NCBI RefSeq assembly: GCF_003334405.1
Contig: NZ_QOWM01000001.1
Strand: one strand, 5' to 3'
DNA length: 64,000 nt
Source of the DNA: Escherichia coli
GTDB lineage: Bacteria > Pseudomonadota > Gammaproteobacteria > Enterobacterales > Enterobacteriaceae
This document shows, piece after piece, positions 24,110-25,129 of the stretch. The notes beneath the pieces were generated by a model. That model worked only from the letters and a program-made list of their open reading frames with translations, was not told the origin of the DNA and searched no databases. The position numbers and the translations under genes were made by a program. Within the stretch, counting starts at the first letter, position 1; each line of letters opens with the position of its first letter.

Positions 24110-25129
24110 ATGAAACTTTATTATTACAAATCTCCTACTGGTAACTTTGGTGATGATTTAAATGCTTGGCTGTGGGAAGAGTTGCTGCCAGGGTATTTCA
24201 AATATGAAAATGGTATTATTTTTTCAGGAATTGGAACTATTATTTCTGCTGATATGCCAACATCGAGTAAAACTGTAATCTTTGGCAGTGGCGTTGGTTA
24301 TGGTTATCCACCAATGAATTTCGGTGACAATAGATGGGATGTGCGCTTTGTAAGAGGTCCGCTATCCGCAAAAGTCCTTTCGCTGCCTGCTAATAAATAT
24401 ATTACAGATAGTGCAATTCTCGTCTCTAAAATAGAGGGTTTTGAACCGTTGCCTGAGAATGAAAGAAGCGGGATTATTTTTGTTCCCCATCATCATGCAT
24501 TACATACAGGTCAATGGCATGAAGTATGCAAATCAGTAGGTATTGAGTTTATTGATCCTACCCAAGATTCAAAATATGTAATACAAAAAATAAGAAAGTC
24601 GAAACTTGTTCTAGCTGATGCGATGCATGCTGCTATTATTGCAGATTCACTTCGAGTTCCGTGGATACCTCTGGTAACCTCTAATCAAATTAATACATTT
24701 AAGTGGATTGATTGGACTTTATCAGTTAAATTAGAGTACTCCCCATCATATATTGGGCCAAGTTCTATGCGTGAATGTTTGAGGAATAAATTTCTTCATT
24801 TATATGGTGAGTCATTTTATATAAAAAGTTTGAATGCTGATGATTCCATAAATTGCTTTTATAAACAAAGGGATATTTTGTCAAATAAATGGTGGCCTAT
24901 TTATAGTAAAATAATTAGAAGATGTGTATATACAGCCCCCAATCTTTTATTAAAGAAAATTGAACAATTCTCGTCTCCTAGATGGGATGAAAAATATATT
25001 AGTTTAGCTAAGAAAAAAATCTTAGATGCAATGAAGAGAGCGCCAATGTTAAGTTCCGATGATGTTTATCAATCGAATTTAAATAAAATTCTTAATGAGG
25101 TAGAATGCGTAAGAAAAATGTATAAATAA
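24110..25129 (+). CDS. Putative polysaccharide pyruvyl transferase (ExoV/WcaK-like); function tentative
   Basis: Start taken at ATG 24110 (MKLYYYKSPTGNFGDDLNAWLW); N-terminal NFGDD motif resembles pyruvyl-transferase family; AT-rich. Confidence 0.45.
   Translation: MKLYYYKSPTGNFGDDLNAWLWEELLPGYFKYENGIIFSGIGTIISADMPTSSKTVIFGSGVGYGYPPMNFGDNRWDVRFVRGPLSAKVLSLPANKYITDSAILVSKIEGFEPLPENERSGIIFVPHHHALHTGQWHEVCKSVGIEFIDPTQDSKYVIQKIRKSKLVLADAMHAAIIADSLRVPWIPLVTSNQINTFKWIDWTLSVKLEYSPSYIGPSSMRECLRNKFLHLYGESFYIKSLNADDSINCFYKQRDILSNKWWPIYSKIIRRCVYTAPNLLLKKIEQFSSPRWDEKYISLAKKKILDAMKRAPMLSSDDVYQSNLNKILNEVECVRKMYK

Follow-up and report, generated by a model that had tools for sequence, protein, structure and literature searches.

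A putative ExoV-like pyruvyl transferase gene in the O-antigen operon of Escherichia coli O144

The gene and its operon

We analysed a stretch of 64,000 nucleotides (nt) of an Escherichia coli genome (NCBI RefSeq assembly GCF_003334405.1, contig NZ_QOWM01000001.1; hereafter the window), and in it a gene of the O144 O-antigen cluster at 24110..25129 on the plus strand, whose product is a putative polysaccharide ketal-pyruvyl transferase resembling ExoV. The gene runs from an ATG at 24110 to a stop codon ending at 25129, and its product of 339 residues starts MKLYYYKSPTGNFGDDLNAW, with the motif N-F-G-D-D at residues 12-16. A second in-frame ATG at 24068 would add 14 residues (24068-24109) and give a 353-residue protein overlapping the end of manB; this is the form deposited as GenBank AIG62458.1, which is 100% identical to the window protein. 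Position 24110 is nonetheless the better start, because all 35 homologues in our alignment (A1) begin at the same point with MK(L/V/I)(Y/F/H).

The reading frame is that of a real gene and did not arise by chance, since it stays open for about 1 kb at a G+C content of 33.7% (in the range where stop codons are frequent), has 2085 database relatives, occurs as an identical protein on 82 contigs and shows a ratio of nonsynonymous to synonymous substitution rates (dN/dS) of 0.235 against its Escherichia albertii orthologue, with similar values for the other cluster genes. The gene is intact and under purifying selection. An earlier reading of the sequence (the original prediction) had placed a 339-residue candidate pyruvyl transferase here, inside an O-antigen cluster. 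Both the intact open reading frame and its setting are confirmed, as the gene sits between manB and wzx in the operon bounded by galF (15362-16267, plus strand) and gnd (27697-29103, plus strand).

All genes of the operon lie on the plus strand. Its start is marked by the ops element GGCGGTAGC of the JUMPStart region (16553..16561, plus strand), an exact match and the sole copy in the window, located in the galF-wzy spacer 52 nt upstream of wzy; such an element marks the start of an RfaH-dependent O-antigen operon, here the one holding the pyruvyl transferase gene. The first gene, wzy (16613..17821), encodes an O-antigen polymerase of 402 aa that matches Pfam EpsG. It is followed by three family-4 glycosyltransferase (GT4) genes, at 17876..18964 (362 aa; Pfam Glycos_transf_1 and sub-threshold NCBIfam GT4 matches), 18988..20100 (370 aa) and 20130..21200 (356 aa), the latter two assigned by the same kind of Pfam and NCBIfam searches. 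Next come manC (21239..22678, 479 aa), a mannose-1-phosphate guanylyltransferase gene (NCBIfam NF012004, 888 bits against a cutoff of 859), and manB (22705..24099, 464 aa), a phosphomannomutase gene (NF011943, 999.9 bits, above cutoff). Downstream of the pyruvyl transferase gene lie wzx (25147..26664), for a multi-pass membrane flippase of 505 aa, and a family-2 glycosyltransferase (GT2) gene (26661..27602, 313 aa; Pfam Glycos_transf_2). Neither an initiating transferase gene nor gne is present in the cluster. Only 10 nt separate the manB stop from the pyruvyl transferase start and 17 nt its stop from wzx, while wzx and the GT2 gene share 4 nt. This tight packing places the pyruvyl transferase gene inside an O-antigen operon of the classical Wzx/Wzy type. 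The central cluster genes have 27-34% G+C, against about 50% in galF and gnd.

Upstream of galF, wcaM (13805-15199, plus strand) lies in the end of the colanic-acid cluster; gnd is followed by ugd, wzz and the his operon, all on the plus strand. The O-antigen manB has a G+C content of 45%, far above its neighbours in the cluster, and shares 82.5% DNA identity with cpsG of the colanic-acid cluster (6845-8163), 15 kb upstream; a 2019 review of E. coli O antigens invokes this kind of repeat as the substrate of the O14 cluster deletion. In the second GT4 gene (18988-20100), codon 171 encodes Thr in the window and Pro in a second common O144 allele, present on 58 contigs. Window positions 14110-35129 are identical to GCA_003334405.1, and the flanks are those of E. 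coli. Over the downstream flank (39001-64000) the window agrees at 100% identity with E. coli isolates from pigs, whose O-antigen cluster is a different one. In those isolates the corresponding stretch, about 46 kb from four joined pieces, includes phage-related genes (a head-binding domain protein) as well as sbcB and plaP with an ISL3 transposase next to them, and some of these phage and ISL3 genes may sit in insertions that have no counterpart in the window.

Family, fold and conserved residues

The original prediction had proposed a search against PF04230 (PS_pyruv_trans) as its check. In a profile search this is the sole Pfam match of the protein (independent E-value 2e-6, 28.4 bits, query residues 52-191, model positions 92-279/280), and no clear match to a different family appeared. 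The alignment is partial and leaves the N-F-G-D-D motif uncovered. When homologues 39-56% identical to the query were scanned singly, 35 of 36 matched PF04230 at E<=1e-3 (best 7.8e-11) with nothing else significant. Searches of NCBIfam and PHROGs with the protein or its profile yielded no competing family and nothing useful. Many homologues at 39-51% identity carry the JGI name ExoV, which is a transferred annotation. The family assignment is not novel: GenBank already calls the identical protein a pyruvyl transferase, and public records use the names 'polysaccharide pyruvyl transferase family protein', 'exoV-like family protein' and 'exopolysaccharide glucosyl ketal-pyruvate-transferase'.

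An AlphaFold2 model built on the alignment (mean predicted local distance difference test score, pLDDT, 94.5; predicted template modelling score, pTM, 0.93) has an alpha/beta core to about residue 215, followed by an all-helical C-terminal third that forms an extension of about 120 residues. The predicted model has a GT-B-like fold resembling a solved pyruvyltransferase: Foldseek matches in the PDB were weak, and the closest solved enzyme of known function among them was the pyruvyltransferase Pvg1p. In AFDB50, matches reached E-values down to 1e-43 and template modelling (TM) scores of 0.7-0.96 over about 340 columns, to proteins, Rhizobium entries included, whose transferred names are polysaccharide pyruvyl transferase, succinoglycan ketolase or ExoV. 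The sequence is predicted to lack both a signal peptide and membrane spans (maximum 19-residue Kyte-Doolittle mean 1.19), and the isoelectric point is 9.1. Given the PF04230 matches and the ExoV-type structural neighbours, the protein probably belongs to the ExoV/PssM-like branch of PF04230. The same two lines of evidence, together with Pvg1p as the closest solved enzyme, support the ExoV/WcaK-type identity proposed at the outset.

The N-terminal motif on which that proposal had been built proves to be an invariant feature of the subfamily. A Gly-Asn-x-Gly-Asp loop after the first strand defines the PF04230 family, and in G11-N12-F13-G14-D15-D16 the residues N12, F13, G14 and D15 are invariant in 36 sequences, with D16 nearly so. 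GNFGDD aligns with GNRGD of the WcaK N-terminus, and invariant H173, in DAMHAAIIAD, aligns with TRLHSAIIS of WcaK; each local alignment is too short to be significant alone. The invariant residues also include R82, H127, R162, D170, D179, R182 and K198. Pvg1p uses phosphoenolpyruvate (PEP) and needs no metal, and its proposed mechanism places an Asp near O6 of the acceptor and two Arg on PEP, in a cleft between two Rossmann-like lobes (PMC4872226). By analogy, the invariant acidic, basic and His residues of the O144 enzyme would fit this scheme of an Asp base and PEP-binding Arg.

Comparison with individual enzymes gives a graded picture. ExoV of Sinorhizobium meliloti (succinoglycan) and PssM of Rhizobium leguminosarum (exopolysaccharide) share the PF04230 branch of the O144 enzyme, by homologue annotation and AFDB50 neighbours. 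They are of similar size (about 300-350 aa), soluble, and part of a Wzx/Wzy pathway. ExoV-named Rhizobium entries of AFDB50 are 28-31% identical to the O144 enzyme at TM 0.72-0.84, a comparison that goes by transferred names. The targets differ, being rhizobial exopolysaccharide for ExoV and PssM and the lipopolysaccharide O antigen of an enteric bacterium for the O144 enzyme. WcaK, the colanic-acid pyruvyl transferase, belongs to the same Pfam family and shares a C-terminal x-H-(A/S)-A-I-I motif in addition to the N-terminal loop, but it has 426 residues against 339, reads R-L-H where the O144 enzyme reads A-M-H, and lacks the all-helical C-terminal extension of the predicted O144 model. The window thus holds two PF04230 genes, as wcaK (11297..12577, plus strand) lies 11.5 kb upstream of the O144 gene and outside the O-antigen system. 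Its product is 98-99% identical to WcaK-named proteins, all with PF04230, and the two window proteins are too diverged to link by BLASTP or hhalign. Pvg1p, the galactose (Gal) 4,6-pyruvyltransferase of Schizosaccharomyces pombe (PDB 5AX7), is 14% identical to the O144 enzyme with no sequence-level match and, unlike it, modifies N-glycans in the Golgi of a eukaryote.

Serogroup assignment and related clusters

The serogroup was sought by matching 137 published primer pairs (supplement of PMC7403468) against the window. The O144 wzx pair was the sole one to match; its two primers fit exactly at 25620 (plus) and 25845 (minus) and enclose an amplicon of 245 bp, the published size. The exact wzy and wzx sequences carry the NCBI names 'O144 family O-antigen polymerase' and 'O144 family O-antigen flippase'. 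By these sequence criteria the cluster is that of E. coli O144. Serogroup O156, known for a 4,6-pyruvylated Gal antigen, had been suspected first and was ruled out, its wzx primer being unmatched. Judging by its accession series, AIG62458.1 appears to belong to the DebRoy O-antigen gene cluster submissions, in which O144 is KJ755550 from strain 1624-56. O144 is a classic enteroinvasive serogroup (O144:H25 enteroinvasive E. coli, EIEC). Every gene of the cluster is undamaged in the window, as it is in six further genomes, and the cluster was not found in any complete RefSeq E. coli genome.

The same cluster is carried by E. albertii at 94-98% DNA identity. In E. albertii GCA_027568055.1, an intact O144-type cluster compared with window positions 16613-29103 shows synonymous divergence (dS) of 0.07-0.15, far below the 0.376 of the adjacent gnd, a pattern pointing to an exchange of the cluster between the two species in the fairly recent past. 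In a second E. albertii assembly (GCA_002937375.1, 3713-13383) we observed a broken-looking wzy (220 aa), two glycosyltransferases of 233 and 222 aa and an apparent wzx-GT2 'fusion' (781 aa), which would be explained by decay of an O144 cluster or by errors in the assembly. The 233-aa form of the first glycosyltransferase is also present in E. coli LT-68.

Outside Escherichia, the closest relative of the protein (56% identity) comes from an enterobacterium resembling Scandinavium or Pseudescherichia, where it is encoded in an O-antigen locus. This locus, a rearranged homologue of the O144 cluster found on two Logan contigs (L008 and L009; SRR32866276_105 and SRR32866296_25, 8777-20890), has the order galF-[pyrT-wzx-GT2]-[wzy-GT-GT-GT-manC-manB], where pyrT is the pyruvyl transferase gene and the gene families are as in O144. 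Relative to O144, identity is 56% for pyrT, 58% for wzy, 41% for wzx, 44% for the GT2 gene (beside pyrT-wzx in L008) and 56% for manC, while the three GT4s reach only 22-28%. Conservation of pyrT together with wzy, wzx and GT2 (41-58%), set against the far greater divergence of the GT4s, suggests a link between the processing genes and the pyruvate. From this pattern we infer that GT2 may add the residue that becomes pyruvylated and that Wzx and Wzy may recognise the modified unit.

In 27 complete E. coli genomes the gene has a relative at 67% DNA and 53% protein identity, located in an untyped Klebsiella-like group-1 capsule locus beside gnd. These capsule-locus genes were the only DNA-level relatives in complete RefSeq E. 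coli genomes, with none in an O-antigen locus. The related clusters do not reveal the acceptor sugar, the capsule locus being untyped and the glycosyltransferases only weakly related to those of typed E. coli clusters (65.7% DNA identity over about 680 bp to a GT4 of O141).

Proposed function and the O144 antigen

We propose, with a probability of roughly 85%, that the product is a ketal-pyruvyl transferase of the ExoV/PssM-like PF04230 branch, soluble, located in the cytoplasm and dependent on PEP, and that its gene belongs to the E. coli O144 O-antigen operon. Since the cluster has neither an initiating transferase nor gne, synthesis would begin with WecA priming undecaprenyl phosphate with N-acetylglucosamine (GlcNAc) 1-phosphate. 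The four cluster glycosyltransferases would then extend this primer by four hexoses, of which one or more would be mannose, derived from the GDP-mannose that ManC and ManB supply. The pyruvyl transferase would next move C2 of PEP onto two hydroxyls of one hexose of the undecaprenyl pyrophosphate (Und-PP)-linked unit, releasing phosphate and forming a 1-carboxyethylidene acetal, most likely 4,6-linked. Wzx would flip the pyruvylated unit, and Wzy would polymerise it. The gene content thus predicts an O144 unit that is a GlcNAc-primed pentasaccharide with mannose and a pyruvate ketal.

The 4,6 position is the commonest one for a pyruvate ketal and is that made by ExoV and PssM. The PEP donor, the lipid-linked acceptor and the timing before flipping would likewise follow by analogy with characterised enzymes. 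ExoV, WcfO and CsaB act in the cytoplasm on lipid-pyrophosphate-linked repeat units before export, ExoV pyruvylating its Und-PP-linked repeat before flipping, and polymerisation and export are believed to need ExoV to run efficiently (PMC6801904). PEP has been shown to be the donor for CsaB (PMC6801904) and for Pvg1p (PMC4872226).

Several observations weigh against this assignment. The Pfam score of 28.4 bits is modest and is marked 'weak' in precomputed tables. Sequence searches of the PDB with the protein and with its profile were empty, as was a search with a WcaK profile. By BLASTP, hhalign and PDB searches the protein could not be tied at sequence level to a pyruvyltransferase of solved structure or characterised biochemistry, and there is no direct bridge through WcaK, since the comparison with it was not significant by BLASTP (E 0.33) or by hhalign (E 0.21, with a shallow WcaK alignment of >=85% identity). 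The Arg of the R-L-H motif of WcaK and Pvg1p (R337-L338-H339), which in the Pvg1p model contacts PEP (PMC4872226), is Ala in the O144 enzyme (A171-M172-H173); one of the invariant residues R82, R162 or R182 may replace it. Finally, the O144 type strain is described as rough in the 2019 review, which lists no structure for its O unit. Our literature searches for an O144 structure, including after that review, and for pyruvylated E. albertii O antigens found none.

The roughness of the type strain also raises an alternative, namely that the enzyme is a true pyruvyl transferase in a cluster that is silent or whose O antigen is not made, so that it has no phenotypic consequence. The type strain is reported rough though its cluster looks complete, and its protein (AIG62458.1) is identical to that of the window. 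However, O144 is defined serologically and O144:H25 EIEC are typed by their O antigen, the cluster genes are undamaged in the window and six further genomes, the cluster-wide dN/dS of 0.12-0.28 between E. coli and E. albertii is a sign that function has been selected for, and the ops element is present. The roughness of one old laboratory strain can moreover come from a lesion elsewhere, for example in waaL or wecA, and we consider a silent cluster improbable. Slightly less probable still is that the protein has the pyruvyl-transferase/GT-B-like fold but moves another group (glycosyl, phosphoglycerol or other), in which case it would resemble other GT-B-like enzymes or the uncharacterised WbbZ. 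Against this reading, no glycosyltransferase, TagF or epimerase family was matched by sequence, PF04230 is the only family match for 35 of the 36 members, the AFDB50 neighbours at TM 0.7-0.96 are all named ExoV or pyruvyl transferase, and the four glycosyltransferases of the cluster already suffice for a five-sugar unit.

Pyruvate acetals are known from other O antigens of E. coli and Shigella. The 2019 review lists only O112ac, O149 and O156 as pyruvylated, with the acetal on GlcNAc (4,6) in O112ac and O149 and on Gal (4,6) in O156. In Shigella dysenteriae, the type 10 O unit contains 4,6-(S)-pyruvylated beta-mannose. The type 9 antigen has its pyruvate on Gal. A presumed cross-reaction between O144 and S. 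dysenteriae 10, on which our literature searches found nothing, serves as a lead only. A more detailed reading can be built on these elements: O144 would be a mannose-containing pentasaccharide with a 4,6-pyruvate acetal, made by an ExoV-type enzyme that a DNA-level search found to be absent from the O-antigen loci of complete RefSeq E. coli genomes, recognition by the co-conserved Wzx and Wzy would depend on the pyruvate, in line with the proposal for ExoV, and 4,6-pyruvylated mannose would be the epitope of that presumed cross-reaction. We hold this combined reading to be possible but unlikely in full.

Beyond the structural prediction, this is a routine homology-based annotation of an ordinary member of a known family. 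O144 is nevertheless clinically relevant, occurs also in E. albertii, and was one of the few E. coli O groups without an O-unit structure in the 2019 review. For this serogroup the gene content offers a testable structural expectation, a GlcNAc-primed unit in which mannose is among the four other sugars and which bears a pyruvate acetal that, being acid-labile, would be lost in the usual acetic-acid delipidation.
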